Of a stretch of 64,000 nt of DNA, positions 20,893 through 40,500 are shown piece by piece (position 1 is the first letter of the stretch; each line of letters starts with the position of its first letter). The notes under the pieces were generated by a model. It searched no databases. It worked only from the letters and a program-made list of their open reading frames with translations, and was not told where the DNA came from. The stretch is from NCBI GenBank assembly GCA_964372025.1, contig CAYJPF010000003.1, positions 3,334 to 67,333 of the forward strand. Direction: 5' to 3'. Source of the stretch: an uncultured Peptococcaceae bacterium (GTDB lineage Bacteria; Bacillota; Dehalobacteriia; UBA4068). The translations under genes were made by a program, and so were the position numbers.

Positions 20893-20904
20893 GGAGGCAA
20901 CCAA

Positions 20905-21612: not shown

Positions 21613-21613
21613 C

Positions 21614-22015
21614 ATGTTAAAAAAGAAAAAGAAACTGCCTATAATAGACAGTTTATTTAAAGAGTATACTGAAGCTGAGCTTAATGACATCCTTAAAGAC
21701 CTAAGCAATGAAGACAAGGCTAAGTTCTTAGGTATGGTTCAGTCAAACGCAATCAGTAATGGTATGCTTAGAGCTTACCCAGAGGTTATCCTTGCAGGAC
21801 AAGAGAGCGCTTTCATTTTACTCTACGAACGTTTTGTCAAACCTATGGTAGACGCAGACGAACGAATTAAGCGTGGCCTGACGGTAGACGAATTAAGCGA
21901 ACAGCTTATAACTCTTATAACCGTTAGAGCAGAAGAAGGCGTAGAGCGCAGAGAAAAGATGAAGGAGTACATCAAGAAACGCTCCGAAGGCAAGACAGTC
22001 GAAGATGTAATATAG
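21614..22015 (+). CDS. hypothetical helical protein
   Basis: ATG at 21614; last plus-strand gene before convergent terminator. Confidence 0.45.
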   Translation: MLKKKKKLPIIDSLFKEYTEAELNDILKDLSNEDKAKFLGMVQSNAISNGMLRAYPEVILAGQESAFILLYERFVKPMVDADERIKRGLTVDELSEQLITLITVRAEEGVERREKMKEYIKKRSEGKTVEDVI

Positions 22016-22667: not shown

Positions 22668-22678
22668 TTAAACACCAC

Positions 22679-24622: not shown

Positions 24623-24644
24623 TATAGCCACTTTAATTCTCCTT

Positions 24645-25439
24645 TCAATACAGCTCGTCTGATTTCCAAAGGAACATCGGATTATACTGCACAAGCATGT
24701 TTGCTTCAGTCTCAGCGTTGAGAGCAGTCACAGCATAACTCTTAGTCTTGGATATCTTAGTAAAGAGATACCCTTTGCTCAGATAACGCATAGCATTAAT
24801 CTGACTGCCATCTATGCCTAATAGGTAACACCTGTCCTCTACAGCGTCTATAACAAGCGAATAGCCTGTGGGTACAGTACTATCCCACTTGAACTCAACA
24901 TCGCCTACAGTGAAATTAGGAGTTACTACGCCTTCTCCTATCGTTGCTGTAAAGCCTATATCAGCATGACCCTTGTTATCTATCATGCCGTTGCCGTGGA
25001 AGGCTACAGGGGCAACCAACGTTCCATATGGTTGTGTCTCAAACGGTATAGACACCTTAATCATGTTGTATTCGTCAAGTATCTCAGCAGACCCGGAATA
25101 TTTCACCTTAAACATAATACCGGCCTTAGTAAACACAAAGTTTTGATACTTGTCTTTAGTACTGTCGAGAGCAAACACTAAGTCGCGTTTAATCTTTTCC
25201 CTTTGCTCGAATGTTCGCCCTGCATACGACACAGCAACTACAGAGAATACCCTGTTCAAGTACTTAGTATCCTTGACTATTTCGCCATCTACACCGGGGA
25301 TATTAACGATAACATTCTCAGCAACTGGGATAGCAGGGAAGTTAGTTTCATCTGTGTTGACAATCAAACCAAAAGGCATAAAGTATATCCTCGGGTCTGT
25401 ATCTCCCACTCTGCCTATAGTAAAGTTAAAATCACTCAT
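24645..25439 (-). CDS. distal tail protein (Dit)-like, siphovirus tail family
   Basis: MSDFNFTIGRVGDTDPRIYFMPFGL...IPGVDGEIV pattern; paralog of adjacent gene. Confidence 0.6.
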   Translation of the reverse strand: MSDFNFTIGRVGDTDPRIYFMPFGLIVNTDETNFPAIPVAENVIVNIPGVDGEIVKDTKYLNRVFSVVAVSYAGRTFEQREKIKRDLVFALDSTKDKYQNFVFTKAGIMFKVKYSGSAEILDEYNMIKVSIPFETQPYGTLVAPVAFHGNGMIDNKGHADIGFTATIGEGVVTPNFTVGDVEFKWDSTVPTGYSLVIDAVEDRCYLLGIDGSQINAMRYLSKGYLFTKISKTKSYAVTALNAETEANMLVQYNPMFLWKSDELY

Positions 25440-26590
25440 TCAGAAAACTCCTTTCCCCACAAATACATTGGGCTATAATCAGTGACTATACTTGCCAAAG
25501 TGCTTGAGTTGAGGCAAGTAAGCTTTGCACTCTCGTTAAGATTAAGCTTAAAGAACTCTCCGCCTTTAGTTAAATCAGTTATAGCGTTAATTCTATTTCC
25601 AAAACCGTCAATCAGATAGCATATGGATTTGTCTGCATCTATGATAAGCTTATAGCCTTCAGGCACAGTGCCTTCCCACAGAAACTCCAGCGTGCCTACA
25701 GTAAAGTTAGGATTAACACATCCAGCGGACAGGGTGAATATAGCGCCTATAGGCTTAGCGCCTGTATTAGTAATAGTGCCATCTCCGTAGAACTGTTCAG
25801 AGAACAATGTCTTGCCGTAGGGTGAAACTTCAAAAGGCACTGTAGCTCTCAACCAGCCATGTCCCTCACGAACCTCAGCACCGCCTGAGTACTTAACATC
25901 AAAGGTCATGTCGTTCTCTTGGATAGACAACTGCTGGCTCTCATTGCGTGTCCTGTCCAGCAACTCAGCGATGTGAGATTTCATTTCATTTAGCTGAGTA
26001 ACGCTTAGTCCTTGCATTGAGTAAGAGACAATATTAAAGAAACGATTAGTGTACAAAGTATCCTTAATCACTGTGCCATCAACGTTTGGAAGGTCGATAT
26101 AAGTACTTTCTGTAGAGGGCATAATCTGTATCTCGCTCTCTACAGGTGAAAGGAAAGTGTCGAAAGGCATGAACCACTTTTTGCGTGGGTCTCTATCCTC
26201 TGCACCACCAATATAAAAGTCGCTCTCAGCTACTCTGGGAATACCATCAGTAATTTCTACGCTATCAGACACAGGGATATGAGCAAAGGTACTCAAAACG
26301 TCACTTATGCCTATATCGTCTAAAATATCAAGAAACGCTGCAACTGAAGTACCATCTTGCATGTTTATTTGGTCGAACACATCTAATCGTGCTTCAGCAA
26401 GGCGTGTAGCATCGTCAACAATGACACTATCGCCGAATAAGTTAAGCACTTCCTGCAAGCCTATAGCGTCAGAAACATTGATAGTGTCGATTATGCTAAC
26501 CAAATAAGTAATAACTGCTCCATTGTAGGTCAACGCTCCTTCATAGCCATGCGCATTATAACGAGCGTTTTTGTTATAAATGTTGCTCAA
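25436..26590 (-). CDS. Dit-like paralog with about 130-aa N-terminal extension, TTG start
   Basis: Core ESDFYIGGAEDRDPRKKWFMPF...LPNVDGTVIKDT...PMYLW collinear with 24645-25439; AGGAGG 7 nt upstream of TTG at 26590. Confidence 0.55.
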   Translation of the reverse strand: MSNIYNKNARYNAHGYEGALTYNGAVITYLVSIIDTINVSDAIGLQEVLNLFGDSVIVDDATRLAEARLDVFDQINMQDGTSVAAFLDILDDIGISDVLSTFAHIPVSDSVEITDGIPRVAESDFYIGGAEDRDPRKKWFMPFDTFLSPVESEIQIMPSTESTYIDLPNVDGTVIKDTLYTNRFFNIVSYSMQGLSVTQLNEMKSHIAELLDRTRNESQQLSIQENDMTFDVKYSGGAEVREGHGWLRATVPFEVSPYGKTLFSEQFYGDGTITNTGAKPIGAIFTLSAGCVNPNFTVGTLEFLWEGTVPEGYKLIIDADKSICYLIDGFGNRINAITDLTKGGEFFKLNLNESAKLTCLNSSTLASIVTDYSPMYLWGKEFSE

Positions 26591-26597
26591 AAAAAGA

Positions 26598-26628
26598 CCT
26601 CCTAAAAAGAAAAGGGGCAAGCGCCCCT
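26598..26628 (-). terminator. rho-independent terminator (minus strand)
   Basis: GGGGCgcttGCCCC hairpin followed by TTTTCTTTTT on minus strand, immediately after stop of 26633 gene. Confidence 0.55.
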
Positions 26629-26632
26629 CGTC

Positions 26633-28039
26633 TTATATTCTTTCGTATAGATAATACCGCGGGCTTCTGTTTGCACAATCAAGTTCCAACGCTTCCCAAG
26701 AAGTATAGAAGTAATCTCCATTGATTTGCACGTATTTAGAACGATACGAAGAGTCGAACTTCCCGTCATACATATAAGCATCAGCACCCATCACAGTGTC
26801 GTTAATCATAGCCGCAAGGAAGATGTAATGCCCTCCGGTAGAAAAGATGCCGGTGTGACCAGACCTATCTCCACCTACATTAGCAATAACAGCTCCACCG
26901 CGCTTCAGAACCAACTCAGCTTCTTGCCAATCGCTTGTAGTCTGATAATCAACATCCCACTCGTCAGCTACTGCTTCAGAAAGCGTCTTCATGTTTGTTC
27001 CACCTGACACTCTTGCACCACACTCTAAAGCCAGCTCAACCATGCCCTCAACATCTACATTAAAACCCAAGCGAGACAGTACCATAGCCATAGAAGTAGG
27101 GCCACAACCACCGGATGCAACAGTTGCACTCTCGTAGCCCGGTGCAGGGTAAGGCATATTAGGGTAATCTCTTTGATTGAATACAGTAATGTCAGGCTTG
27201 AACTTACTTAAGCTTAACACAAAAGCAGCTCTGTAACCACTGGAAGTAGGATAGTAAATCCTTATTAGTCCATTGATAGTGACATCTCCGATAGCACATA
27301 CGTCACCTTCGGAAATATACCTTCCGCTCTCTATCAATCCAGCTTCGGTGTAAACAGACTGTTTCTCCGTTGAAACTAAAGTTACTTCTTGGTAGTACTC
27401 TGTATCTTCGGGCGGATGCGGCTCTGGTTGTTCTTCGGGCTCAGGCTCTACTATTGCAGGCGCATCATCATAAGCAACAACAGCGTTATATAGATAGTCC
27501 CTTGTGCTGGTGTCATGCCATTCACCTTCAAACAATAAGTACCTGCTTCCACCACCATCGTGATTAGACATGCTTACCATACCTGCGGACATAGCCTTAT
27601 TGCTAAATTGTTCTAAAGTGGTACCTTCATCAACCATGATTACATAGCAATCACCGTTAGCATCCATAGCGAAGCCTATACGATTAGGCTGTGAGTTAAA
27701 TGCAGGGTCACTCCAACTGGGAGGAACATACTTGCCATTGACTACGCTGCCTGTGAACCCGGTAAAGTATTCGTTCCAACCTAACCATGGAGTGCCAAAA
27801 CCAAGAGCTCCATCCTTAGTTATCCCCATACCATAACCATTGCCAGAGTCTTTTACTTGCTTGCCATCCTCAATGATTGTGCCAAGCGGAATGTTCCCTG
27901 TTTCTTTAGACCAATGCACAAATGAACCTGAAAACATAATCACAGGTTTTTCTTTTTGAGCGTTGTACCACTCTGTAGGCGTTTTGCCGCCGAGCCTCAC
28001 AACATCCCATCTTAATCCCTTTGGTAGCTTAAACTTTTT
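26633..28039 (-). CDS. two-domain protein: N-terminal phosphodiester-glycosidase-like domain + C-terminal C39-like cysteine peptidase domain (monocistronic moron)
   Basis: C-terminal GGCGPTSMAMVLSRLG ... GHYIFL (Cys/His dyad of Peptidase_C39_2-type); N-terminal assignment tentative; GTG start with AAGGGG RBS. Confidence 0.55.
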   Translation of the reverse strand, partial: KKFKLPKGLRWDVVRLGGKTPTEWYNAQKEKPVIMFSGSFVHWSKETGNIPLGTIIEDGKQVKDSGNGYGMGITKDGALGFGTPWLGWNEYFTGFTGSVVNGKYVPPSWSDPAFNSQPNRIGFAMDANGDCYVIMVDEGTTLEQFSNKAMSAGMVSMSNHDGGGSRYLLFEGEWHDTSTRDYLYNAVVAYDDAPAIVEPEPEEQPEPHPPEDTEYYQEVTLVSTEKQSVYTEAGLIESGRYISEGDVCAIGDVTINGLIRIYYPTSSGYRAAFVLSLSKFKPDITVFNQRDYPNMPYPAPGYESATVASGGCGPTSMAMVLSRLGFNVDVEGMVELALECGARVSGGTNMKTLSEAVADEWDVDYQTTSDWQEAELVLKRGGAVIANVGGDRSGHTGIFSTGGHYIFLAAMINDTVMGADAYMYDGKFDSSYRSKYVQINGDYFYTSWEALELDCANRSPRYYLYERI

Positions 28040-28074
28040 CACGTCAAAACCCCTTTTCAATTTAGTATGACTTT

Positions 28075-28103
28075 AATATACACCTATAAACATAAAATGT
28101 AAA
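28075..28103 (-). promoter_or_regulatory. candidate minus-strand promoter TTTACA-17-TATATT
   Basis: -10 at 28075-28080, -35 at 28098-28103 (reverse complement), about 35 nt upstream of GTG start. Confidence 0.4.
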
Positions 28104-28460
28104 GTTAATTAAGAGAAATTGTTAGATGTTGTATATATGGCCCTTTGGTGGGCTGGTTGAGCAAATAGCTACTCCCCCCCCCGCACGTGTTTAAAGCAAG
28201 AGAAAGGAGTAGCTACACATATGGCCCTTCGGAGCCGCCGCATATCGCTTTTTGCTATCAGCCGAAACTGAAATCGGATTAACCACCAAGGTCTTGTGTC
28301 AAACGTGGCGGGTGGTCATCCCTTTCCGATTCTCCCCTCATTGCTGAACAAGGACGGGGTCACTGCACTCACAGTGAAATCTTAAAAACAACGTGGCTCT
28401 AACCCACTACATACCGGTGACGAACACGGCACAGGGAATAACTCCACACCCCTGAACAAG

Positions 28461-28500
28461 AGTAAAAATATAAAAGCCCTACAGTGTAAGCGCACTGTAG
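28461..28500 (-). terminator. rho-independent terminator (minus strand)
   Basis: CTACAGTG-taagcg-CACTGTAG 8-bp hairpin followed on minus strand by GGCTTTTATATTTTTAC. Confidence 0.5.
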
Positions 28501-28587
28501 AGCCTTTGTATAACTTAGCATATGCTAAGTTATCATGTATGTAGTCGCTTACCTACAAACAAATAATAGCATACTCGAAAGCGTTTG

Positions 28588-29133
28588 TCAAGCCATGTAA
28601 TGAAAATAACAGTAAATACGCTCGTAAGGTTTTTTACCGCTATCTTCGTCAAACAAAAAGTCCTTAGCCAGCTCAACAAAAAAGCGAGCTTCACCGGTCA
28701 TTTCAGCAATCACAGCACTGCGGTAGTGGTCGTGCCACATAGCATTTAGGACAGCCCAGAACTCCATCTCTGTAAGGTCTGTCATGTCTACGCCATACTG
28801 CTTGCCCACGGCAGTAGTTTGTTGCATGTTCCAGTGTGCGCCCATATGCTTAGCACCGTTAGCTGTATGCCACATTCCGGCTACCCAGTCCTCAAGTTCT
28901 TTATCGCTCAAACGCATTTCGTGGTCTTCGCTATGCATTTCTGCGTCAGGGTAGGTAGCACCTAAAACTTCTGTGTGATAAGTTTTCCAAAACTCACGAC
29001 TACGCATAAGCTTACAAAACTCATACTCATGTACTACTTCGGCTTTCATTGCCGTAGTAAGGGGCATACCTGACTTGATGTCCTCTTGAAGCATTTGCAG
29101 TTTTTTCTCTGCATCAACGCAAGATTTATACAT
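28588..29133 (-). CDS. hypothetical His/Trp-rich protein (181 aa)
   Basis: AGGAGG 8 nt before second in-frame ATG (MYKSCVDAEKK...). Confidence 0.5.
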   Translation of the reverse strand: MYKSCVDAEKKLQMLQEDIKSGMPLTTAMKAEVVHEYEFCKLMRSREFWKTYHTEVLGATYPDAEMHSEDHEMRLSDKELEDWVAGMWHTANGAKHMGAHWNMQQTTAVGKQYGVDMTDLTEMEFWAVLNAMWHDHYRSAVIAEMTGEARFFVELAKDFLFDEDSGKKPYERIYCYFHYMA

Positions 29134-29314
29134 TAGTTTTATCCTCCTGTGTTTCATCTTCGCTTAGCACAGCGTTCATGTCTATGCCAAGCTTGTTTTT
29201 AAGCACCTTGTCGCCCATCTTTAATGCCATCTTGCTGGTGCTTTCAACTATCTTCCGCCCTTCAGCCGTTGTGAATAGGCAAGCAAAAGTAGCTCCCATT
29301 ACAAACTGCTTCAT
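29126..29314 (-). CDS. hypothetical small protein
   Basis: 62 aa from internal ATG; weak RBS. Confidence 0.35.
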   Translation of the reverse strand: MKQFVMGATFACLFTTAEGRKIVESTSKMALKMGDKVLKNKLGIDMNAVLSEDETQEDKTNV

Positions 29315-29315
29315 C

Positions 29316-29762
29316 TTAATTAGCACACTTTCTCTTGCCTTTTACGCCTTGAAGAGTTAAAGAGCACGATGCCGGTGCAAACCTCAAGACGAGTATACTT
29401 CTGCATTGAAGCGTAGTCTGCCACAGGTCAGCAACGCAACCACCTGTACGGCAAGGTAATACTTCATAGACAGGGAGCGTAGTAGTGCCGTCTGTAATCT
29501 CTACAAGATTGCACGAGCTGTCAAGCGGGATGCTGGCAAATAGACCAACCTCGACACATTCGCAAGCACAGAGACCTGTTAAAGCTCCATCCGATACAGT
29601 TACGGTGTACTTGCCGCTCTTTAAAGTTACACTGCTGGCTCGCAGTACGCAGTTACAATTACTCATTTTAGTAGTTCTCCTTTTAAGTTTTATTTCGTTA
29701 GTCGCAGTCGCAACTACAATTCCGTTAATGCTAAAAGACGCTGTGTTTATGATACTAAGCAT
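29316..29762 (-). CDS. Cys-rich protein (12 Cys in C-terminal 116 aa); start ambiguous (29762 or 29666)
   Basis: N-terminus MLSIINTASF resembles MSIVNTANF of upstream gene (shared TAAACACAGC DNA); internal AAGGAG RBS before MSNCNCVLRAS. Confidence 0.4.
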   Translation of the reverse strand: MLSIINTASFSINGIVVATATNEIKLKRRTTKMSNCNCVLRASSVTLKSGKYTVTVSDGALTGLCACECVEVGLFASIPLDSSCNLVEITDGTTTLPVYEVLPCRTGGCVADLWQTTLQCRSILVLRFAPASCSLTLQGVKGKRKCAN

Positions 29763-30106
29763 TGATAGAGTATCAAGTGGCTCGAGTTAGGCATCCAGTT
29801 GACTTCTATATGTGAAGGATTGCCTTCTAAGGGTTCGGCATCTACAGTAAGCGTACCTTCTATATAGCTTAATGCTGAAGGCAGGGTGTCACTAAAGACT
29901 TGATTGGTAAGTTGACCGTTGAAGTCGCTTATTTCGATGGTAACAGCATAGGTAATCACGTCTCCACGATAAACTGAACTTGGGTGAGCTTTTTTGCTAA
30001 TAGTCACAATAGGCTCAACAAGTTGCTCTACAGTGGAGCTGGCATTAACTACAAAGTCTTCATCTCGGAAGCGATAATTAAAGTTAGCTGTGTTTACAAT
30101 TGACAT
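29747..30106 (-). CDS. DUF11-like beta-sandwich (conserved repeat domain) protein
   Basis: YRGDVITYAVTIEISDFNGQLTNQVFSDTLPSALSYIEGTLTVD resembles the DUF11/B_ant repeat pattern. Confidence 0.45.
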   Translation of the reverse strand: MSIVNTANFNYRFRDEDFVVNASSTVEQLVEPIVTISKKAHPSSVYRGDVITYAVTIEISDFNGQLTNQVFSDTLPSALSYIEGTLTVDAEPLEGNPSHIEVNWMPNSSHLILYQCLVS

Positions 30107-30192
30107 GATAGCCTCCTAAATTAAAAGAGGACGGTCTCCCGCCCTCTAAGTCACGCCGAAGCGGAAAGTCACAATAATTTCTTATTGGAAAA

Positions 30193-30711
30193 TTAGCAGC
30201 CGAATCCGCCTACAGGACTACCACTGCATACATAAGCCTGACCGTAAAGTCTGGGCTCTTTCAGCATCTCGCAACGGATAGCGTTAAGCTCTGCTTTGAT
30301 AGCAGCAGTCTCAGCTTGCGAAACGAGGTCGCGCTTAAGGGTTGCTACCTCAAGGTTAAGTGCGTTCTTCTCTTGTCCATCAAGGATAGCACGTGATTGT
30401 GCATCAAGCTTGAGGTCAAAGATACGCTCTTGAAGTCCAGCCTCATACTGGCGCGAAGACTGGTCATACAGTCTCTGAGTGTTGGCGTTATTAGCTTCGA
30501 TTGTGCGGTTTGTGGTTTGCTCAATCAGATACTGAGTACGAGCGGTATCTATAATGCCTTGTTTTTCAACTTCGCAGTTAGATACACGGTTGCAACCAGC
30601 TTCATTGTAGCGATTACCAAACAGTCCGCCGCCGAAAATCAGCCAAATGATAACGATGATAAACAGGATACCAATGGTTGAGTTCGAGCTTGTGTCTCTT
30701 GTTTCCCACAT
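30193..30711 (-). CDS. membrane-anchored coiled-coil protein with Cys-rich ends
   Basis: N-terminal TM IGILFIIVIIWLIFGGGLFG, long helical region, C-terminal YVCSGSPVGGFGC. Confidence 0.5.
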   Translation of the reverse strand: MWETRDTSSNSTIGILFIIVIIWLIFGGGLFGNRYNEAGCNRVSNCEVEKQGIIDTARTQYLIEQTTNRTIEANNANTQRLYDQSSRQYEAGLQERIFDLKLDAQSRAILDGQEKNALNLEVATLKRDLVSQAETAAIKAELNAIRCEMLKEPRLYGQAYVCSGSPVGGFGC

Positions 30712-30749
30712 AGTGTTTTGCTCCTTTCAAAAAATATTTATTTCGTCGC

Positions 30750-31115
30750 CTATTTCAGACGAGGAAATTTAGGTTTATTGCTGTTGGAGCTGGATTTATT
30801 TGAGCTTTGTGGCCTGTTTACTCCGCCACTTTTAACTATATTTAATCCTTGTTGTTTTAACTGTTCGGGACTTGTTCCTACAAGGCTTAGCAGAGTCTTA
30901 GCCATTGGATTACTCCCGTATCTATTATACAGTTCGTTTATTCCTTGCTCAGTAATACCAAAGTTACGAGCAATGTCACCTGCTTGGTCGTCAGTTGCTC
31001 CCTGAACTGCTTGGCTTGCTCGTTTTACTGCTTCCTGTATTTCGTTTTGGTTGCCCGGAAACATCTTCATCAACTGTGACAGTATCATTTGTGTGTTGAA
31101 CATTTGCATTACCAC
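30750..31115 (-). CDS. hypothetical protein
   Basis: ORF; overlaps 30991-31416 by about 115 nt in another frame; true start uncertain. Confidence 0.4.
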   Translation of the reverse strand: MVMQMFNTQMILSQLMKMFPGNQNEIQEAVKRASQAVQGATDDQAGDIARNFGITEQGINELYNRYGSNPMAKTLLSLVGTSPEQLKQQGLNIVKSGGVNRPQSSNKSSSNSNKPKFPRLK

Positions 31116-31416
31116 CTTTCAGTTCTTTTAACAACTGTAGTATCTCAAGGTTAGCCGCTTGGCTCTGCCTAAGAGCTTCTTGCGTCTCTTGCAAAATCTC
31201 TTCAGAAGTCTTTTCAGGTACGATGATGCCTACTTCGACAAGCTTGTTGTAATATTCAACTGTAGTCTCTTCTAAGGCGTTGTAGCGGTCGTTAGTATGC
31301 CCTATAGGTTGCTTGCCTGTATGGAAGTCTATGGCGTATATAACACCATCTTCTACTACACAAGGGATACGTGCGTTGCCTGTACTAAACTGGGCGTTGT
31401 AAGAAAAATCACTCAT
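30991..31416 (-). CDS. hypothetical protein (142 aa)
   Basis: AAAGGTG RBS before ATG at 31416 (MSDFSYNAQ...). Confidence 0.45.
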   Translation of the reverse strand: MSDFSYNAQFSTGNARIPCVVEDGVIYAIDFHTGKQPIGHTNDRYNALEETTVEYYNKLVEVGIIVPEKTSEEILQETQEALRQSQAANLEILQLLKELKGGNANVQHTNDTVTVDEDVSGQPKRNTGSSKTSKPSSSGSN

Positions 31417-31582
31417 AATTAACACACCTTTCTTTGTTGCAGCGACTGAGTGGGTGCAGGTGTGATACACCCACGTCTGCCGCCGCTATATACATGGGGG
31501 GAAGGAACGGGAATAAAAAACTCCCTACCTTGATACTACAAGATAGAGAGTATATTCATAAGTACTCTAAAGGTACTAATTA

Positions 31583-32932
31583 TTATTTTTTCTTTTGGTT
31601 TTTCTTTAGCTCTGGGAACACCTTAGCAACCTCACCAAAGTAGTTCTTACACGTTTGTTCAGAATAGCCAATCTCTAAAGAGACCTGCTTCATTGTCATG
31701 TTATCCACACAATACATTAAGGTTATCTTCTCGTGTAAGTTTCTAAAACCAGCTTCATTAAGTTTTAGCTTCAACTCATGTTTAGGTGAAAACAACATCT
31801 TTAGTTTAGCAATGAAGGGTTTGTCTGCTATATAATCAAATGCCTCTCTTATCATATACAGAATAAAGTCAACAATCAGTGCGACGATAACTGTGTTGAA
31901 GATAGAGAAAGCAATTCCGGTTGTATTAAATAACGCTACACACAAAGTGATTGTAGTGATACATACGCAAGCAATCTTGACCAGATTAGCTCTAATGTTA
32001 GGAATATAGTCTGCGTGAAACTGCTTTGGAAATAGCTTTCTTAGTGCTAAGTATGCAACGTAAAGAAAAACTGCCTCAACTACTCTGCCTATAAAGTACG
32101 CATAAAGCAAGTACAATCCATAGACAAATATAAGCGGAGGCAAATTCTTCTTCAAGTCGTGCCGAAACTCAAGCTTCAGGTAATGCTTGAAGTTCTTCGA
32201 GTTCCGTGTGAAGCTTGTGCAAACGCCAGCGAATATACTCTTTTTCGCTTTCGTCTGTCGAACCTTCAAAGCGCTTGACAAGGTTTGCAATGCTTCCTTG
32301 AATACGCTTGCGCTCTTCTTCCATGAAGCCGAGGCCCCATCTAAACACAATAGCCATTTGCGTCCACCTACCTTTATATTTATTAGAGTTATAATCCATA
32401 AAAGATAATAGTCAACAGAATATATCGCAGACATTGCAAAAGACTGTGATTGTTCTATTAAAGATAAATTAAGAACAAACAGCGAACAAAAACTGAAAAT
32501 GCTATCTAAAACAAACAAGCACATCGTAGGCGCAAGGCGCTTCGTAAATAATAACGGAATTGCATAAAAAGAAAAACTTAGAATTGCTACTAACACATTC
32601 CATTCTTCCCCTGCGAATAAAGTGTTGATAACAATTAAATAAGATGTTACAAAAGTATTAACAATTAAGGCTCTACTTTTGTAATTTGGGATAACACAGG
32701 CGTACATTAGGTTAATGCCTATCATGCCCTTGATTACGTTAATTATACCTCTCGCCCAGTCGTTGCTGTCTACAAAATAAATAAAAGCGTTGAGTCGAGA
32801 ATTAGTTATCTCTACACCAAACGCTTCTATGCCGAAAAGCTTCAGTGTAAACGTAGCAAACAAGAACACCCAACACAAGGTTAGCACTCGACTCATTATA
32901 GCCGTGAAATGTGCTCTTGTCATAATAGTCAC
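31583..32932 (-). CDS. polytopic membrane protein with C-terminal sigma70-region4/LuxR-like HTH
   Basis: multiple TM helices at both ends; C-terminal MTMKQVSLEIGYSEQTCKNYFGEVAKV; hydrophilic central linker contains an alternative-frame ORF. Confidence 0.5.
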   Translation of the reverse strand: MTIMTRAHFTAIMSRVLTLCWVFLFATFTLKLFGIEAFGVEITNSRLNAFIYFVDSNDWARGIINVIKGMIGINLMYACVIPNYKSRALIVNTFVTSYLIVINTLFAGEEWNVLVAILSFSFYAIPLLFTKRLAPTMCLFVLDSIFSFCSLFVLNLSLIEQSQSFAMSAIYSVDYYLLWIITLINIKVGGRKWLLCLDGASASWKKSASVFKEALQTLSSALKVRQTKAKKSIFAGVCTSFTRNSKNFKHYLKLEFRHDLKKNLPPLIFVYGLYLLYAYFIGRVVEAVFLYVAYLALRKLFPKQFHADYIPNIRANLVKIACVCITTITLCVALFNTTGIAFSIFNTVIVALIVDFILYMIREAFDYIADKPFIAKLKMLFSPKHELKLKLNEAGFRNLHEKITLMYCVDNMTMKQVSLEIGYSEQTCKNYFGEVAKVFPELKKNQKKK

Positions 32933-33015
32933 ACCTGCTTTATAATTGAGGGAGGCCGCCGCCCGGCGAGAAACGACGACCTCGGAGGTTTTAAATGGAA
33001 TCCAACTGTACCTTT

Positions 33016-33044
33016 ATAGTAGCACGATACCCACTATTTGTCAA
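33016..33044 (-). promoter_or_regulatory. minus-strand promoter TTGACA-17-TACTAT
   Basis: -35 at 33039-33044, -10 at 33016-33021 (reverse complement); spacer ends aTCGTGC as in promoter at 13522. Confidence 0.5.
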
Positions 33045-33095
33045 CACACTTCTAAAGAAATAGTGTTTAAAAATATATTAACAAAAGATTAAGTT

Positions 33096-33572
33096 TCACT
33101 TAGCTCTTTTTTCAAGCTTATTAAAGCTTTCAATCCATGTAGGCATCGTTCCATTGCCATTGCTCTTTTCATAAGCATTGTAAAGTTTAATTACCGTCTC
33201 TACTTCGTCATAGGTGCTGTACCCACGTTCTAAAGCTCGTGTAATCAAATAATGCAGTCGTTCGTGAAGCACGGCAATGTTTGCTTCCTGCAATGCCGGA
33301 AGATTGTCTGCAACAGCGTTTAAACTTTCAATCGCTGTGGTTAGCTTGACAATCTGTCCGCTACAGTCTTTCCGGCATTGCAGCCCTGTTTCTAACTTTT
33401 CTCCCATCACTCTTACCTTTTCTTCAAGAGTTGCAATTTTGTTGTTTTGCAATCGTTTGTCTTGAATACGCCTTGCAATTTTCTTGCAAAGAGGGACAAT
33501 AATTTTTGCCAAAGTTAAATACGCACCTCCAATAATGCCAATTAACCCTGCAGCCTCTACAACTTCAAACAC
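33096..33572 (-). CDS. TM + coiled-coil protein, paralog A (holin-associated)
   Basis: N-terminal TM, C-terminal ERGYSTYDE...NGNGTMPTWIE..NKLEKRAK; paralog of 33594-34085. Confidence 0.5.
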   Translation of the reverse strand: MFEVVEAAGLIGIIGGAYLTLAKIIVPLCKKIARRIQDKRLQNNKIATLEEKVRVMGEKLETGLQCRKDCSGQIVKLTTAIESLNAVADNLPALQEANIAVLHERLHYLITRALERGYSTYDEVETVIKLYNAYEKSNGNGTMPTWIESFNKLEKRAK

Positions 33573-33593
33573 ACCTTGCCCCCCTTAGCAAAA

Positions 33594-34085
33594 CTAACTG
33601 GCTCTTTTTTCAAGCCCTCCGTATACTTCCATCCACTTTGCCATAACGCCGTTACCATCGTTTTCTAAATACGCTCGGTGCAGATTGTGGATAACATCAA
33701 ACTCGTCAAAAGTCGTATACCCACGCTCTACAGCCTTTGTAATTAAATGATGAAGCTTGTCGTACATCATAGCAAGATTTGCCGCTTGAAGAGCTCTTAA
33801 CGCAGGTCTGAACCCTTCTGCTTCTTTAATTAACTCCTTTAAGGCGATGCTGTCTTCTTCGTACTTTTCGTCTAATTCAGCACCGGCTTTTACTGCCTCT
33901 TTCAACTCCCTCAAAACCTCCTCCAACTTGGCTATGCGTTCGCCTTGCATTTTTGTTGCCTGTCTTGCATCCCACCATCTACGAATGGGAGGCATGATTA
34001 GTTTTTGAACGGCTATAATGGCTCCGGCTACAATTGAAATTCCACCAAACCAGCCAAGTATTACGTCCATTTGCAAGCTAATCAT
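33594..34085 (-). CDS. TM + coiled-coil protein, paralog B
   Basis: C-terminal ERGYTTFDE...NDGNGVMAKWME..GGLEKRAS collinear with paralog A. Confidence 0.5.
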   Translation of the reverse strand: MISLQMDVILGWFGGISIVAGAIIAVQKLIMPPIRRWWDARQATKMQGERIAKLEEVLRELKEAVKAGAELDEKYEEDSIALKELIKEAEGFRPALRALQAANLAMMYDKLHHLITKAVERGYTTFDEFDVIHNLHRAYLENDGNGVMAKWMEVYGGLEKRAS

Positions 34086-34106
34086 CCTTTCGTTGGGAAG
34101 AATGTT

Positions 34107-34289
34107 TTACAGATGTCCGCTGTCTGTAGGATTGTTTACAATACCAAACGCTACAAGTACCGGCAACAGCACATTTAGGAGTCCGTCAACGGTTGCTGAA
34201 ATGTCAATACCGGCAAACTCTTTTACACAAAAAGTTACCAGTGCTGCGATAGACACCCAAAGTGCCCAACTCTTAAATCTGTTTTGCAT
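34107..34289 (-). CDS. holin, phiLC3/Phage_holin_1-like (60 aa, two TM)
   Basis: NRFKSWALWVSIAALVTFCV...GIDISA...LLPVLVAFGIVNNPTDSG matches phiLC3-family pattern. Confidence 0.6.
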   Translation of the reverse strand: MQNRFKSWALWVSIAALVTFCVKEFAGIDISATVDGLLNVLLPVLVAFGIVNNPTDSGHL

Positions 34290-34291
34290 AG

Positions 34292-34702
34292 TTATACCTC
34301 GTTTTCTTTCTGAGCTTCTTGCTCCTTAATGTTCAACTTAGCGTACTCGTCGGCAAGGGTAGAAATGAGTTCCATATCCCAGTGGTCGTGAGTCTCGTAC
34401 CACTTTTCAACGGCTTTGAACATTGCAAACGACCATTTGTATTCAGGATTTGCACCCATAAAATACATTTGGTTGTTCTCTGCAAATTCGTTACGCCATG
34501 CGTTAATCTGCTCAGCTGTTGCCACCTCAAACTCTGCAATAACTACAGGGTCATAAGCAGGGGCTACGGCAATGCCAAGTTTCAAAGCTTTCATGTCTGC
34601 TGCAAACATGTCTACATGCTGGTCAATGGTGTGAATACTGTCAGGGGTAGACTTATCGACTACCTCAACTTGCGTGATGTGCTTCAAGATTAGATTGTTC
34701 AT
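34292..34702 (-). CDS. hypothetical protein (136 aa)
   Basis: ORF; no motif. Confidence 0.5.
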   Translation of the reverse strand: MNNLILKHITQVEVVDKSTPDSIHTIDQHVDMFAADMKALKLGIAVAPAYDPVVIAEFEVATAEQINAWRNEFAENNQMYFMGANPEYKWSFAMFKAVEKWYETHDHWDMELISTLADEYAKLNIKEQEAQKENEV

Positions 34703-34723
34703 TTTGTTTGCCTCCTTTTTATT

Positions 34724-35206
34724 TTAAATGCTTATCCAATACTTTTTGCCTGTAATAGTATCAGGAGCATTTAATTCGTTTCTGCTGTGACTCTGCTTAC
34801 ATTCGTAATTAGCACCATTCCACGACACCCTGTCGGTGCCGTCCAAAAAGTAATAATCAATAGCATAGCTATCCCAAGAGGGATAACCAGCCTCAAGCCT
34901 TAGCCAGAATGCCTTTTCGTCGCTATAAGTAGCGGTCACAGGGTCAATACCTTTAACAGGCTTCTCTGCCATGTATTCTGCTCCGTCAGAGCCTGTAACA
35001 ATATCGCCCCTGATGTACCGTTGCTCAGGGTTATACGCGTCACCTGCTTTAGGTATACCGCTTAATTGTCCGTCTACAATAGTGAGAGCTGACAGCCTTG
35101 TTGTAGTTTCGCTAAGTGCAATTTCCATCTCGAGTATCTCATTAGCCTTTGCTTCTGCAAGCACAAGGTCTACTGTAAATCTGCTATCTGCTTTAGGCAT
35201 TTTCAA
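34724..35206 (-). CDS. protein with tandem CBM5/12-like carbohydrate-binding repeats
   Basis: AYNPEQRYIRGDIVTGSDGAEYMAEKPVKGIDP and YYFLDGTDRVSWNGANYECKQSHSRNEL. Confidence 0.5.
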   Translation of the reverse strand: MKMPKADSRFTVDLVLAEAKANEILEMEIALSETTTRLSALTIVDGQLSGIPKAGDAYNPEQRYIRGDIVTGSDGAEYMAEKPVKGIDPVTATYSDEKAFWLRLEAGYPSWDSYAIDYYFLDGTDRVSWNGANYECKQSHSRNELNAPDTITGKKYWISI

Positions 35207-35606
35207 TTACCTCCGTTCCGGGTAAAGTCGGCCACACTACAGCATCGGGAAATCCCTCTTGCTCTGTGACATCTCGCAAAGCTTGTTTGTATATCTGCCA
35301 CTCAACCTTCTCTTCGGGAGATTTAAGCTCCCAGTTAGATGCGTTGCAATAGGTTAAGTCACATTCAAGCAGTAGTGCGTTACGCTGGTCGCGGATTACT
35401 TGTTCTTTCTGTGGGTCGAGTTCGGAGTGCTCAACTTTATCCCACCAGAGTTCTTCGGTCTCCACGTTAACCTTAAGGATGTAATCAAAAGGTACTGAAC
35501 CCGGCGGAGGCGGAATAGTGTCCGTAAGGAAATATGGACGGTCTGTCGGTGGTTTAGTTGAATATGACGCTAAGTCCCCACCGAACGTAAAAACATAATA
35601 AATCAT
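35193..35606 (-). CDS. tail fibre assembly protein (Caudo_TAP/Tfa-like)
   Basis: C-terminal KVEWQIYKQALRDVTEQEGFPDAVVWPTLP matches Tfa W..YR..L...WP..P signature. Confidence 0.55.
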   Translation of the reverse strand: MIYYVFTFGGDLASYSTKPPTDRPYFLTDTIPPPPGSVPFDYILKVNVETEELWWDKVEHSELDPQKEQVIRDQRNALLLECDLTYCNASNWELKSPEEKVEWQIYKQALRDVTEQEGFPDAVVWPTLPGTEVIENA

Positions 35607-35618
35607 TTTACTTCTCCT

Positions 35619-36878
35619 TTATAGTGGTAAAACTATAGCACCGCAAAAACTACCAGACCCCATCGATATGGCCGCTGAGTTACTGCTGATAGCAATGACT
35701 AAAGACGTCTTCGGGGAATGACCATACTCTTGGTCGTAGATAGAGATGGTGTTTTTGTTGGTAGACTGAACAATAATTAGGTCTGTTCCAGCGTTTTCGC
35801 TGGAGTATATCATAAAATAATCAAATGGGTTATCGTTGCTCAAATAGGTTGTATAATTACTTTTATTAATTCTAAAGTTGTGTGCCGATGCGCCGACTCC
35901 TATGTACACGGCCATCCCGGAGCTATTGTCCACATATTGTTTATTAACCGCGTCTCCGTCGTCAGTAGGAGTTGCAAGATTGAGTATCTTATTTGTCGCC
36001 ATGTTAATGGCACCTGACATATTCCCACCACTTGTTGTTAAATAACTTAGTAACCTTTCAAGCAAAAAGCTTTGAGGAACAGCGTCATTGGCCTCAGCAG
36101 GAGAGGAGACATTCTGGATAGGGTTCCCACCCATGTTTAAGGTGCCACTCATTGTTCCTCCAATTTTGGGCAAAGCGTCTATAGGTGTAGCCCATTGCTC
36201 ACCGGTAGCTGTCTTGGTTAGAACTTGCCCAGCTTCTCCGGCTACAGTAGGCTTGGCTATAACGTCCTCTTTTAAAGCATAAGGTGTTAAGTCTATTTTA
36301 GCAGCAGAAGGCACCCAATCGCCTGTCACGCTGTCCCAGATATAGAACATATTCTCCGTGCCCAACACAAGAGCATAGTCACCACTAAGGCTTGTAGGTA
36401 AAGCTGTACGCAAAGCTTCTACAGAGGCATAATCACCCTTGTAGTTATCTATATGCTCCTCTATGGCTGCCAGCGATGCATTTATAGCCGATATAACGGC
36501 ACTTACATCGTTGACACATACAGCACTAACAGTAATCGTATCGTCCGCTGTGGGATACGTAGAAGGCTGCCCGACGAACTCTATACTACCACCTATATAA
36601 CTTACAGCAAATTGCGCAGACTCAGGAGTGATTATGACTCCATTCTTCTTAACAATAGGAGCAGGGCTTTCAAGCCAACCCTTCTTATCGTTAGGCACTT
36701 GGAATATACGATAGCGGTCGTCTGCGTCTATATAGACCTCAGTCATAGCCAAATCAGTTATTTCAGTAGTGCCAAGATTAAGCGCAGTAGCTAATTTAGT
36801 TATAGCTCCAGAGAGACCGGCAATGTCCGCACTCTTAGCAGCAGTTGAGCCGGGGTCAAATGATACAAATGTAGCCAT
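35619..36878 (-). CDS. tail fibre protein
   Basis: two copies of the fibre repeat GGTMSGTLNMGGNPIQNVSSPAEANDAVPQSFL / GGNMSGAINMATNKILNLATPTDDGDAVNKQYVD. Confidence 0.65.
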   Translation of the reverse strand: MATFVSFDPGSTAAKSADIAGLSGAITKLATALNLGTTEITDLAMTEVYIDADDRYRIFQVPNDKKGWLESPAPIVKKNGVIITPESAQFAVSYIGGSIEFVGQPSTYPTADDTITVSAVCVNDVSAVISAINASLAAIEEHIDNYKGDYASVEALRTALPTSLSGDYALVLGTENMFYIWDSVTGDWVPSAAKIDLTPYALKEDVIAKPTVAGEAGQVLTKTATGEQWATPIDALPKIGGTMSGTLNMGGNPIQNVSSPAEANDAVPQSFLLERLLSYLTTSGGNMSGAINMATNKILNLATPTDDGDAVNKQYVDNSSGMAVYIGVGASAHNFRINKSNYTTYLSNDNPFDYFMIYSSENAGTDLIIVQSTNKNTISIYDQEYGHSPKTSLVIAISSNSAAISMGSGSFCGAIVLPL

Positions 36879-36898
36879 AATTTCCCTCCTTTCTTAGA

Positions 36899-37489
36899 TT
36901 AAGCAGACAGAATGGTTATAGTGCCCTGAAGCGTCCAAGTAGAGCCAAGAGCCTTAGTACCCATATTCTGCACAGTCCTATTAAGGGCAACAGCTTCGCC
37001 TGTGTTCCCGTTAAGGATACAAACCTCACGCCAGTTGCCATTAGCTGCATCGTCATCGAATACAGCTCTAAATATGACAGAGCGCCCACTAACTTGAGGA
37101 TAGCCCGATTGCACTTTAGCTGTACCCAAGGAAGCAAGAACACCTACTTGGTCTGCGGCAGAGGGAGTTTCGCTTGAACCGACAGCCATATATGCGTTAG
37201 CCTCAGAATACGGAGTAGCAGACGCGCCTACAAGGGCTTTAAGCAGCTCAGCAGCGCCGCCGTTAAGGATTATATTCCCACCGTCTTCGTACACTTCATA
37301 AGGGACAGCTCCTTCAGCAAGAGCTAAATAGTCCTCAGTATGGTACTTGTTAATCAGAGTATGAAAGCACCATCTAACATGCTCAGATACGCCAAGCTTC
37401 TTACCAACCTGCCGGAGCAGGTCAGTAAGTTGGTCGGTATTTAAATCCTTGAGATTGTCGAGTATAAAGTTAAAATTCTTGTCTTGCAT
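36899..37489 (-). CDS. hypothetical structural protein (196 aa)
   Basis: GAAAGG RBS before ATG (MQDKNF...); directly downstream of tape measure. Confidence 0.5.
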   Translation of the reverse strand: MQDKNFNFILDNLKDLNTDQLTDLLRQVGKKLGVSEHVRWCFHTLINKYHTEDYLALAEGAVPYEVYEDGGNIILNGGAAELLKALVGASATPYSEANAYMAVGSSETPSAADQVGVLASLGTAKVQSGYPQVSGRSVIFRAVFDDDAANGNWREVCILNGNTGEAVALNRTVQNMGTKALGSTWTLQGTITILSA

Positions 37490-37551
37490 AATAAAGCCGC
37501 CTTTCTTCGATTGCTTCTCTGTTTTCATCATACACCCATTTGTTCGAAAAA

Positions 37552-40500
37552 TCAATAGGGCAGTAGCCTAAAGTCTAAGCTACTATATCCCGACTGTCTT
37601 TTCGTAGGTGTAAGATTTACTACTGTATTGTTCGTTGTGCGGGTGTTGTTGTAGTTGTTTTGAGAACCGGTATAACCTGAGCTTCCGCCGGGACTTGTAG
37701 GCATAGAAGGTGTCATCTTCTTCTGTTCTTCTTGGAATTGCCTTAGAACCGCAGCAAAATCTTCCGAGATAGGCTGTATCCAGCCATCACGCCATGCTTC
37801 ATACAAGATTTGAGCACTGCTCTCTCCAACTGATACCATGCCGTGGATAAAGATATCGTCTATCTCTAACCTTGCAGGGTCTGCCCATTCCTCTCCAAAG
37901 ACTTTAGATAGGTCTACAGCAGCAAGTTTGTTGTCTTTCTCCATCTGTTCAAGAACATCAGCCCACATCTTCTCGGCTAAATCGGTAGCCGGTATCATGT
38001 AATCTGTTTTATAGCTCTCCAGCAAGGCTTGATTGTCGTAGGATAGGTTATCCGCATCCAGCTCATTAACTTCATCTACGAGGGCAGATAAAGCGTCAAT
38101 AAGCCTATCAATGACTTCAAGCTCAGCATCTCTTAACGACTCAAGTTGCTCAATCTGGTCATCAATACGCCAGTCCTCAAGTTGCTCATTCCAATCCTTG
38201 TTGATATCAGAAATCTCTTCCATGATATCAGCTTCTTGTTCACGGTACTCTACACCGCTTCGAGCAGAAGCTTCAGCCAAAGACTTACTTGCTTCATCAA
38301 GACGCTCATAGTACTCTTCCTTAGCACGTATACGGTCGTTCTCTTGTTCGACATCCCTAAGCGCATCAATCTGAGCCTGATACCTGTCCTCAATAGCTTC
38401 TTTTTCGCGCTCTAAAGCTTCGATATTAAGCTCAAAGTTCTTTGTTATCTCTTCTTGGGTTTCTGCAAAATTAGACTGTATCTCTACAATTTCATTCTGC
38501 AAGTCCCACCAAGCGGTACTGTTAGCAAGGATGTCTGTAGCATACTCGTTAGGGTCAATAGCACGATATAAATTATTGACCTCGTGTAGTTTCTGCTGTA
38601 TAATCTGAAGCAATGCTACTTGCTCTTCGTCAGATGCGCCTCTTGCTCTTGAAAACTCCAACTCTGCTTCAGCTAAAGCCAAAGCCTCTTCTGCAGCTGT
38701 GATGCGTGGGTCTTCCGTGTCGCTACCGCCATAGCTATCATAGCTGTACGTATCGCCGGAAACATCTGGTAGCTGTACCCCAGCTTCAAGGTTGGCAAGC
38801 TCTTCTTGTATCTGACCTACCATGTCTAAAGCTGAAAGATATTCTTGCTCAGCAGCGATAAAGTCTGCGGTAGCTTCCTCTGCCAAAGAAGAAAACCCTT
38901 TGCGAATGTTAGCTATTTGGATATCTTTTTCGGCTTGTTCTGCAACATTAAGCCACTTCTCCAGCTCTGAGGTAAGCCCTTCAACATTAGTAGAAACAAC
39001 AAGGTTATTGACATTCATACCTTGTGCAAACAAAGCCGAAACCATTTGTGCCTGAGTAAGCAAGCCCTCGGTAGCTTCTTTCATTTGCTCGATACGAGTA
39101 ATAGCGTCTACTATTTCGTTTCCGACATCAACCCAAGCATTAGCGTAGTCCTCTAAGACTCCATTAACGATATCTTGAAGTAACTCTCCAGCCTCTCCAT
39201 TCTCTCGTATATACGCCTGCACATAGCTTTGAATAGCATCCCATGCTTCGCCTTCGCCCTTTACTCTTGCAGCGTTATAAGCATCAAAGTATCCGGACAT
39301 AGCATCTATTGCGTCTTCTACTTCAGCACCGTATAGCTCTTCTACTTCAAGTGCGGCTATCTGGGCTTTTCTTAGGATGTCATCGTTGATTGTATCCCAA
39401 TGCTCCTGATAGTCAGCTTCATATTCACTCATACGAGCTTCAATCGCAGTATATACTTCCTGAACTTCCGAAGGCCATTCGCTGAAGTCCATAGTGTATT
39501 GCTGATTTAACAGTTCCTGCAAACGCTCTAAGTTTTTGTAGATATCAAGAGCGCTGTCTCCAGAAATCTCAAAGGTTCTAAAAAGCTCCTCACCCTTAGA
39601 GTTGATTGTATCTATAGAGCCACCTACCTGTTCAATAAGGTGCTCTATTTCGGTAAGCTCTGGTACAGACTCTCCAAAAGTAAATCCTGTACTTTCAGAT
39701 GACTCCATAAGAAGCCCGCCTTGTTCGTTAATACGATTGGCGTTTGCAACTGCAACTTGATTTTCTATTTCTAAAGCTTTAAGTCGCTCTATAGACTCTT
39801 GCGCTATAAGAGCTATACCAGATTGACGACCATCGTTAAGCTTCTCAATCTGTTCTGCCTCAAGTGCATAAGCTTCAGTGACATCTTTTACCCAACCGCC
39901 AAGAACCTGCCTCTGAGATGCTTCTTCAGTCTGTAATAGCACTGTAGACTTGTACTGGTCTGACAGTTTTTGCATAGCAGAAAGCTCGTCAAACACCTCT
40001 TGTGCTCTATCATTAGCAGCAACAGACATCTCGCGTTGTTTTTCGTTATAATCTTCGATGGCACTAACTATTGCGTTTACAGCAAGAGTGCCGATAGCAA
40101 AGGCGGTAGTCCAACCAGTTATACTTTGGCTAAGAGTTTTGCTGACTTTAGCTGCTGCTTCTACGTTTGGATTGAACTTATTTGCTATGTTTTTTCCAGC
40201 ATTAACAAACGCAGTCCCAACACCACCAATAAACTTAGCAATGTTCTCTTGTTTGATAAGCAAGAAGGCTATCCACACTGCATTGAGCAGAGAAGGTATA
40301 CCACCGATTACGCCTACAAACTTTACAAGTTCGGTAAGCGCAGAAGTTAATCCTTTGAAGAAACTTAGTCCGCTCTCTTCACTAAAAGCTACTGCCAGCA
40401 ATTCAGCTTCATTACGCAGTACTTGGAAACGTACAGCAAGTGTGTTCATAACCTTGACGTTTTCTTCAACTGAATAATTAGAAGCAGTAAGCATACCCTC

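Follow-up and report, generated by a model that had tools for sequence, protein, structure and literature searches.

A tandemly duplicated member of a holin-linked phage protein family next to a phiLC3-type holin gene in a divergent phage

The 64,000-nucleotide stretch analyzed here (hereafter the window; part of contig CAYJPF010000003.1 from an uncultured Peptococcaceae bacterium) contains, at 33096-34289, three successive minus-strand open reading frames (ORFs): a holin gene followed by the genes of two related membrane proteins, paralogs A and B. An earlier note made from the sequence letters had delimited the same block and had read it as a phiLC3-type holin followed by two paralogous proteins, each with a transmembrane helix and a coiled coil. 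The features of the block, with lengths in amino acids (aa), are as follows.

34107-34289, minus strand: holin gene, 60 aa, two transmembrane domains (TMDs), phiLC3/Phage_holin_1 type.
33594-34085, minus strand: paralog A, 163 aa, member of the PHROG 4257/4105 family, that of Dp-1 Gp57.
34008-34064, minus strand: transmembrane helix of paralog A, about aa 8-26, Gly/Ala-rich, predicted N-out/C-in, hydropathy 2.31.
33597-33809, minus strand: C-terminal domain of paralog A, aa 93-163, helix-strand-helix-GNG loop-helix-strand.
33096-33572, minus strand: paralog B, 158 aa, same family as paralog A.
33489-33545, minus strand: transmembrane helix of paralog B, about aa 10-28, hydropathy 1.94.
33099-33311, minus strand: C-terminal domain of paralog B, aa 88-158, motif ERGYSTYDE...YEKSNGNG...LEKRA.
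33016-33044, minus strand: sigma-70-like promoter TTGACA-17-TACTAT with TG, scoring 10/12 in the promoter scan, a consensus match only.

The 60-aa protein has two hydrophobic segments (about aa 10-30 and 30-52) and contains the motifs on which the earlier note had based its phiLC3-type assignment. It matches the Pfam model Phage_holin_1 (PF04531) with 22.1 bits, a borderline score for a cut-off of 22, and PHROG 297, labeled ‘holin’, with an expectation value (E) of 1.9e-8. Judged by these matches, it is a holin of the phiLC3/Phage_holin_1 type, predicted to form the lethal membrane lesion. The gene of paralog A begins 21 nt past the holin stop codon with an AAAGGA resembling a ribosome-binding site upstream, and that of paralog B begins 21 nt past the stop codon of paralog A with the ribosome-binding site AAGGGGGG. 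If paralog A is started at M6 (34070), as in the NCBI call, its length is 158 aa. A promoter-like site is present only after paralog B, ahead of an unrelated 449-aa membrane protein, so that holin, A, and B close a transcription unit and the next unit starts there. Rfam and tRNA scans of the window gave no match. The order of the tail module is tape measure protein, fibre, chaperone, a protein resembling carbohydrate-binding modules (CBM), a 136-aa acidic protein, holin, A, B, and later an NAGPA/C39 protein, two Dit-like proteins, and Tal. As the NAGPA/C39 gene lies right upstream of the Dit, Dit, and Tal genes, the holin block is situated within the tail module.

As previously noted, the genes that follow the holin gene are true paralogs. 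Their proteins are 36% identical over 149 aligned residues (E 5e-36), and within the C-terminal domains 34 of 71 residues are identical. Both have a single N-terminal transmembrane helix without any Lys or Arg before it, followed by four (A) or six (B) such residues in the next 15. The linker between helix and C-terminal domain is a single long helix in the AlphaFold2 model, with a heptad periodicity that is significant in A (p ~0.005) and marginal in B (p ~0.05). The full-length model has a predicted local distance difference test score (pLDDT) of 88.9, and the isolated C-terminal domain of paralog A was modeled with a pLDDT of 94.2 and a predicted template modeling score of 0.79. The C-terminal motif quoted in the earlier note is present in both proteins, with one correction: GNG is preceded by ND in A and by SN in B. 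Foldseek searches of the PDB with the full-length model and the isolated domain returned nothing significant (best E 4.4). In BFVD, only family members matched the domain (template modeling scores 0.8-0.95); they come from uncultured phages, and many are auto-named ‘Holin protein’.

Paralog A matches PHROG 4257 with E 3.3e-15, and paralog B matches PHROG 4257 (E 1.9e-12) and PHROG 4105 (E 1.5e-8). Both PHROGs are labeled ‘unknown function’, and the family has no Pfam model. An exhaustive HMMER search of 1.84 billion representative proteins yielded 149 proteins at E < 1e-3, nearly all of 64-210 aa, and the profile built from 147 of them recovers paralogs A and B with E 1.2e-30 and 5.8e-31, respectively. 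In a word-indexed homolog search, a single query returned the query protein alone and the profile returned 17 proteins; relaxing the E-value cut-off in a further search yielded nothing of use. Among named phages, the family profile matches Gp57 of Streptococcus phage Dp-1 (E 4e-28), ORF7 (gp54) of SM1 (E 7e-23), and proteins of MissB1, Javan355, and Javan266, which together span E 1e-23 to 1e-28, as well as ORF16 of Lactobacillus phage A2 (E 4e-22). It also matches gp24 of Streptomyces phage GoblinVoyage (a ‘membrane protein’ gene) and gp27 of GirlPower, proteins of an Enterococcus cecorum phage, of the Tetragenococcus podovirus phiYA5_2, of Faecalibacterium phage Lugh, and of Butyrivibrio phage Arian, and a ‘putative holin’ of a Latilactobacillus prophage; together with A2 ORF16, the proteins from these genera span E 1e-18 to 1e-25. 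On this profile evidence, paralogs A and B and the named phage proteins are true homologs. Two ORFs inside the window, 3318-3731 and 62586-63275, gave weak matches to the family profile that we attribute to coiled-coil and transmembrane bias; they are not counted as members.

In the plan common to the family, the N-terminal TMD is followed by a basic juxtamembrane stretch, by a coiled coil that varies and is missing from the shortest members, and by a C-terminal domain of about 65 aa with the consensus ‘LLHDRLyyl...ieRGyiT.dE.enl..LY..Y..LGGNGt...l...v..LPik’. Its near-invariant columns G122 (of RGY), Y139, G144, and N145 are kept in both paralogs. A single N-terminal TMD was found in 132 of the 147 members and a second TMD in none. 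Lys and Arg residues are concentrated after the TMD in 131 of the 132 TMD-bearing members, and A and B conform. By the positive-inside rule, the entire soluble part is therefore predicted to be cytoplasmic, in an N-out/C-in topology. Searches of Pfam, NCBIfam, PADLOC, and PDB sequences with the paralogs and the 147 relatives gave weak coiled-coil noise at most.

Existing names for family members are inconsistent. The homologs in CHPC926 (KX879642.1 / NC_070900.1) and SA-TP2 (PQ571305.1), phages of S. thermophilus/S. salivarius, are labeled ‘transcription termination factor’, and those in KF594184.1 and in BFVD records, several of them metagenomic, are labeled ‘holin’. These two labels are apparently artefacts of annotation, the first probably stemming from coiled-coil similarity and the second from the propagated name of a fusion protein encoded by Siphovirus contig89.

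A holin gene adjoins, overlaps, or is fused to the family gene in 18 of 29 independent contexts, which comprise 14 annotated phages, 12 IMG/VR clusters (80 loci clustered at 60% identity), and three metagenome contexts. In 12 of the 14 annotated phages, the family gene is the immediate and often overlapping upstream neighbor of the holin gene, and a lysin gene comes next. The neighbor in the IMG/VR clusters is a protein of a holin family in six, an unclassified small two-TMD protein in two, an endolysin (with Glucosaminidase, CHAP, CW_7, and LysM domains) in one, and none of these in three; the metagenome contexts comprise one probable holin-linked case and two negatives. About one gene in at least 50 is a holin gene, so by our estimate adjacency would arise by chance in a few percent of contexts, and 18 of 29 is far above this. 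The partner holins span seven families (LLH, Dp1, Phage_holin_1, SPP1, Hol44, Hol118, and r1t-like). A natural fusion occurs in Siphovirus contig89, where protein AIE38350 joins a family domain (aa 1-100) to a Phage_holin_Dp1 domain (aa 113-172, E 3.3e-27). This fusion provides a Rosetta-stone argument for a joint function with the holin, and the basic linker before the first TMD of its holin part agrees with a cytoplasmic family domain.

Two other genes were seen near family genes. In the window, the gene of a DUF7841 protein (28588-29157, minus strand) follows the paralogs at a distance of a few kb, and another lies directly upstream of the family gene in the unrelated IMG/VR contig L084 (4553-4987); it is possible that this association is recurrent. 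A protein of about 125 aa with the pattern GDC(T/V)(I/V)RAI...H...D and no Pfam match flanks the family gene in two unrelated phage lineages (L006, 6410-6787; L071, 4546-4929), one of which is the most abundant IMG/VR cluster (52 loci). By this pattern it is possibly a small papain-like peptidase and might serve as a minimal endolysin.

As the earlier note had stated, no cell-wall hydrolase gene follows the block. Pfam and PHROG scans found no glycosidase, amidase, or peptidase domain in the flanking ORFs; they covered all ORFs of at least 119 aa at 22047-37555 with Pfam, PHROGs, or both (the 218-aa ORF at 36899-37555 with PHROGs, the 137-aa tail chaperone ORF at 35193-35606 with Pfam). In the rest of the window, concatenated ORFs of at least 90 aa were scanned at E <= 1e-4, a setting that a very divergent or very small lysin could escape, and a lysin may also lie in the ~6.4 kb of the 70,377-nt source contig outside the window. 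To say that the paralogs stand ‘instead of an endolysin’ is an overstatement, since in relatives the family gene is found in addition to the holin and lysin genes of a cassette and does not replace the lysin. Both of the distant hydrolase-like genes pointed out before do exist, with the domains given below, and encode the only two muralytic-looking proteins in the window, 28 kb upstream (62586-63275) and 6 kb downstream (26633-28060) of the block.

62586-63275, minus strand: SleB-like hydrolase with a membrane anchor, a coiled coil, and a SleB-type domain; candidate unlinked endolysin.
26633-28060, minus strand: NAGPA + Peptidase_C39_2 protein, 475 aa (Pfam E 2.7e-11 and 1.4e-8).

The SleB-like protein matches Pfam Hydrolase_2 (E 4.2e-11), PHROG 14642, labeled ‘endolysin’ (E 7.7e-11), and the SleB structure 4fet in the PDB (E 3.7e-6). 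Its transmembrane segment (aa 6-35) is N-in/C-out by charge. Its gene sits far from the holin, among replication genes encoding a single-stranded DNA-binding protein, a PAPS reductase-like protein, and a DnaB-like helicase. The other protein joins an NAGPA phosphodiester-glycosidase domain to a Peptidase_C39_2 domain by a Pro/Glu-rich linker and has no match among cultured phages or PDB sequences. It had been called a moron, which is not obvious for a gene that is followed at once by those of two Dit-like proteins and Tal. It could be an endolysin or a virion-associated lysin and could cut phosphodiester links of wall polymers. The endolysin is probably unlinked from the holin block, and the most likely candidate is the SleB-like protein, with the NAGPA/C39 protein as the alternative; either would have a role in lysis only by prediction.

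We propose that paralogs A and B are cytoplasm-facing holin partners or lysis-timing regulators that act with the holin in a lysis-control module. We consider this reading probable, though by no means assured, because the genes of relatives show tight linkage to holin genes and one relative is part of a fusion with a holin. The best available explanation is a lysis-accessory role, which would account for the synteny, the single fusion, and the analogy with known regulators, and this part of the earlier suggestion (LL-H-type holins, antiholins, or spanin-like lysis accessories) stands; an antiholin is a possible form of it, whereas the LL-H-type and spanin-like identities do not hold (see below). 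The module would then consist of the two-TMD holin and of a holin-partner protein that has been duplicated in tandem. As bitopic membrane proteins, both paralogs would have a short N-terminus outside the cell, a Gly/Ala-rich TMD, a cytoplasmic coiled-coil stalk, and a small globular domain carrying RGY.T..E...Y..GNG. Expressed from the late operon, the paralogs would be co-translated with the holin and inserted beside it in the membrane, where TMD and oligomerizing stalk would mediate their association with the holin, A and B probably joining as a hetero-oligomer. They would set the timing or the efficiency of holin triggering, either as a co-holin or activator or as an inhibitor. The murein hydrolase would be encoded elsewhere, and the SleB-like protein may act upon membrane depolarization alone. 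A membrane-anchored enzyme with this single need would explain why a linked soluble endolysin is absent.

Several observations weigh against this proposal. The literature searched reports no phenotype for any family member, including Dp-1 Gp57 and its relatives, and the name ‘Holin protein’ in BFVD/UniProt, which was assigned automatically, has no evidential weight. Seven of the 29 contexts have no lysis neighbor. The genes of L005, L006, Arian, and MissB1 are placed among tail genes, and a position at the boundary between tail fibre and lysis genes is also compatible with a tail-related role. The holin-first gene order of the window is the reverse of that in most relatives. No homology to studied one-TMD regulators was detected (hhalign 2.3% with D29 gp30, and 27% with HolP33, in the coiled coil only). 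Finally, that the partner holins belong to seven unrelated families speaks against a TMD-TMD interaction that is specific in sequence, and suggests that the domain recognizes something generic and not one holin sequence. A bolder version of the proposal, which we put forward as speculation and would not expect to hold, is that the RGY...GGNG domain is an unrecognized cytoplasmic module that couples the triggering of many unrelated holins to an intracellular cue or partner and thereby forms a general third component of Gram-positive phage lysis, of which the A/B pair would be a hetero-oligomeric version. Possible cues would include endolysin recruitment, virion maturation, or a host membrane factor, and the A/B hetero-oligomer would perhaps divide activating and inhibiting roles, like a holin/antiholin couple.

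The paralogs could themselves be pore-forming one-TMD holins, alone or as a hetero-oligomer, with the 60-aa protein as an antiholin or minor partner. In the F1 and A2 mycobacteriophages, the one-TMD protein is indeed the principal effector and the two-TMD protein is auxiliary (PMC13056207; bioRxiv 10.64898/2026.08.27.747656). The TMDs of the paralogs are Gly/Ala-rich with GxxxG/A-like spacing, members are named ‘holin’ in some databases, and in locus L028 the family gene directly precedes the endolysin gene with no holin detected between them. However, a bona fide holin of a known family adjoins the gene in nearly every relative, which means that the family adds to a holin and does not substitute for it; moreover, conservation lies in the soluble domain and not in the TMD, and the ‘holin’ names derive from automatic annotation and the fusion protein. 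We therefore regard genuine holins as unlikely. Somewhat further down, and in our view a poor prospect, is the idea that the paralogs are tail-fibre or baseplate accessories, such as factors tethered to the membrane that assist in the assembly or maturation of receptor-binding proteins. In the window, tail genes surround the block, L005, L006, and Butyrivibrio phage Arian carry the gene among tail genes with no adjacent holin, and in streptococcal prophages it comes after hyaluronidase/fibre genes. Yet a boundary position leaves unexplained both the Dp-1-type holin fusion and the overlap in translation between family and holin genes, and the gene is flanked by those of endolysin and holin in the Faecalibacterium phage Lugh (FP_Lugh) and beside the holin in phiYA5_2, a small podovirus with a different tail. 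A cytoplasm-facing, membrane-anchored domain also has no obvious role in fibre assembly.

The paralogs could also serve in superinfection exclusion, as is often the case for small membrane proteins with a single TMD that are encoded close to the ends of prophages. Duplication with fast divergence is typical of arms-race genes, and the family is also not in Pfam. Exclusion proteins or other host-modifying (moron) membrane proteins with no part in lysis would nevertheless hardly be expected in a late operon without a promoter of their own or in strictly virulent phages (Dp-1 and a Rountreeviridae podovirus). PADLOC gave no matches, and the C-terminal domain is kept across phages of Firmicutes and Actinobacteria, whereas exclusion proteins are usually lineage-specific; we consider this explanation improbable. 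Least credible of all are extracytoplasmic lysis accessories (spanin-like or directed at wall polymers) or LL-H-type holins. An N-terminal anchor, a coiled coil, and a C-terminal domain of small size superficially resemble an i-spanin, and this phage’s SleB-like enzyme is built along similar lines. The positive-inside rule, however, predicts N-out/C-in for 131 of 132 members, and in the contig89 fusion the domain shares its side of the membrane with the N-terminus of the two-TMD holin part (N-in). The hosts of the identified relatives are all monoderm, and no ORF for a lipoprotein partner occurs within or after the genes. As for the LL-H-type holins (PF09682), neither paralog matched the model at E <= 1, the model is not among the families listed for the 147 members, and hhalign gave a probability of 0.4% between the family and the PF09682 holin of Javan355.

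Whatever the direction of the regulation that A and B may exert as holin partners, the duplication itself sets this phage apart. The family gene is present in one copy in all 98 other loci examined and in two copies in the window. A and B are each other’s best matches (99 bits, compared with at most 50 bits to other family representatives in the 1.84 billion-protein library), and this wide margin indicates a lineage-specific duplication whose products have since diverged to 36% identity. No close relative was recovered with the two-paralog alignment in IMG/VR and GTDB genomes, an exact 40-mer was not present in GTDB genomes, and no cultured phage matched the region in a blastn search. The terminase has relatives that are only 24-28% identical, and all phage proteins checked are singletons at 90% identity. 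The window thus holds a rare duplicated version of the family in a highly divergent phage, with an endolysin that is probably unlinked. The plus-strand arm of the window (9345-10590 and 15222-18387) encodes a tyrosine recombinase, RecT, a Bro-N/ANT antirepressor-like protein, and a metallo-beta-lactamase-fold protein, along with a MazF/PemK-like protein that was judged by eye only; the phage may be temperate or plasmid-like.

The tail region has further peculiarities. A plus-strand fibre-like module (18462-22015), encoding a 616-aa repeat-rich fibre-like protein and proteins of 192 and 235 aa, runs toward the Tal gene on the minus strand. At its C-terminus, the 235-aa protein shares 38% identity (E 2e-22) with the CBM5/12-like 160-aa protein encoded just upstream of the block (34724-35206, minus strand), and the two large fibre proteins have no similarity to each other. 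The two fibre modules may be alternative receptor-binding sets. The genes at 22679-26620 (minus strand) are preceded by the fibre genes, the holin block, and several unknowns, an unusual order for a siphovirus tail module. The 449-aa protein that follows paralog B (31583-32932, minus strand) has about eight hydrophobic segments, a C-terminal stretch resembling a helix-turn-helix, its own sigma-70-like promoter, and a leader (32957-33044) with a 10-bp GC-rich hairpin; it has no significant match in Pfam, PHROGs, NCBIfam, or PADLOC. In a 172-aa protein (30193-30711, minus strand), an N-terminal TMD and a coiled coil are combined with a C-terminus rich in Cys; it has no sequence relation to the paralogs and no significant Pfam or PHROG match.

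From a biological perspective, lysis timing in Gram-positive phages is far less understood than in coliphages, and recent genetics indicates that one-TMD partners, and not the classical holin, can be the main trigger. Phages of streptococci, lactobacilli, enterococci, gut Clostridia, and Streptomyces commonly encode the family described here. Its domain is confidently modeled and has no recognizable fold in the PDB, and no experimental study of it was found in the literature searched. As a candidate general regulator of lysis, it is open to testing in tractable phages such as Dp-1, SM1, A2, and the Streptomyces phages, with relevance to timing and yield in phage therapy and to the biology of dairy and gut phages. 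The analysis further sets right two annotations that have been propagated, ‘holin’ and ‘transcription termination factor’.

The paralogs share with the PHROG 4257/4105 family the N-terminal TMD, the C-terminal domain with its motif, profile E values of 1e-18 to 1e-30, and the adjacency to a holin gene. They differ from it in being two tandem copies, in lying downstream and not upstream of the holin with no endolysin gene after them, and in a coiled-coil spacer of about 60 aa, longer than in most members. The separation of holin and lysin genes has precedents, as holins unlinked from endolysins are documented in the Bacillus phages Deep-Blue and Vp4 (PMC9327680). Here too, the holin gene stands apart from a lysin gene, although a tie between the holin block and the SleB-like or NAGPA/C39 protein is presumed for this phage. 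The N-terminal membrane anchor of the candidate lysin likewise recalls membrane-anchored or secreted endolysins.

The closest functional parallel is offered by mycobacteriophages. In Girr/NBJ (LysF1a/LysF1b) and D29 (LysA2a/LysA2b), a two-TMD protein and a one-TMD N-out/C-in protein with a charged helical tail jointly set the lysis time and are both required if lysis is to be efficient and timed, with the one-TMD protein as the dominant effector, and in cluster A the gene of the latter lies among minor tail genes (PMC13056207; bioRxiv 10.64898/2026.08.27.747656). The paralogs fit this architecture, as compared by published descriptions: one TMD, N-out/C-in topology, a charged helical cytoplasmic tail, and a two-TMD partner, a pairing also seen in Ms6 Gp4/Gp5. 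The gene arrangement is similar as well, with the two genes adjacent or the one-TMD gene embedded among minor tail genes. However, there is no detectable sequence relation between the family and D29 gp30, and proteins of the LysF1b type are without a conserved globular RGY...GGNG domain. The function of LysF1b and LysA2b is demonstrated, whereas that of the paralogs is deduced. By analogy, the paralogs may ‘work like’ regulators of the LysF1b/LysA2b type, without being members of that group by sequence.

Similar sets exist in phages of Bacillus. Deep-Purple encodes two single-TMD proteins, HolP30 and HolP33, that are both needed for lysis of B. thuringiensis, and HolP33 is an N-out/C-in protein of 98 aa (PMC9327680). 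Like these and PBSX XhlA/XhlB, the paralogs are small single-pass proteins with a coiled-coil or charged cytoplasmic part and a second membrane protein as presumed partner. HolP33 differs in having no C-terminal domain, and aligns with the family in the coiled coil only. The TMD of XhlA is at its C-terminus, and the Pfam models XhlA (PF10779) and BhlA (PF10960) do not match the paralogs, neither being among the Pfam matches at E <= 1. Holin_LLH (PF09682) proteins likewise combine one TMD at the N-terminus with some 100 aa of charged soluble sequence and occur in lysis cassettes of phages of lactic acid bacteria, but in Javan355 the PF09682 holin (E 5.6e-29) is a separate gene next to the paralog homolog. 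The block is therefore a duplicated member of a widespread, uncharacterized, holin-linked family, and the kind of system already known to which it comes closest is the multi-component holin and lysis-regulator sets of Gram-positive phages.

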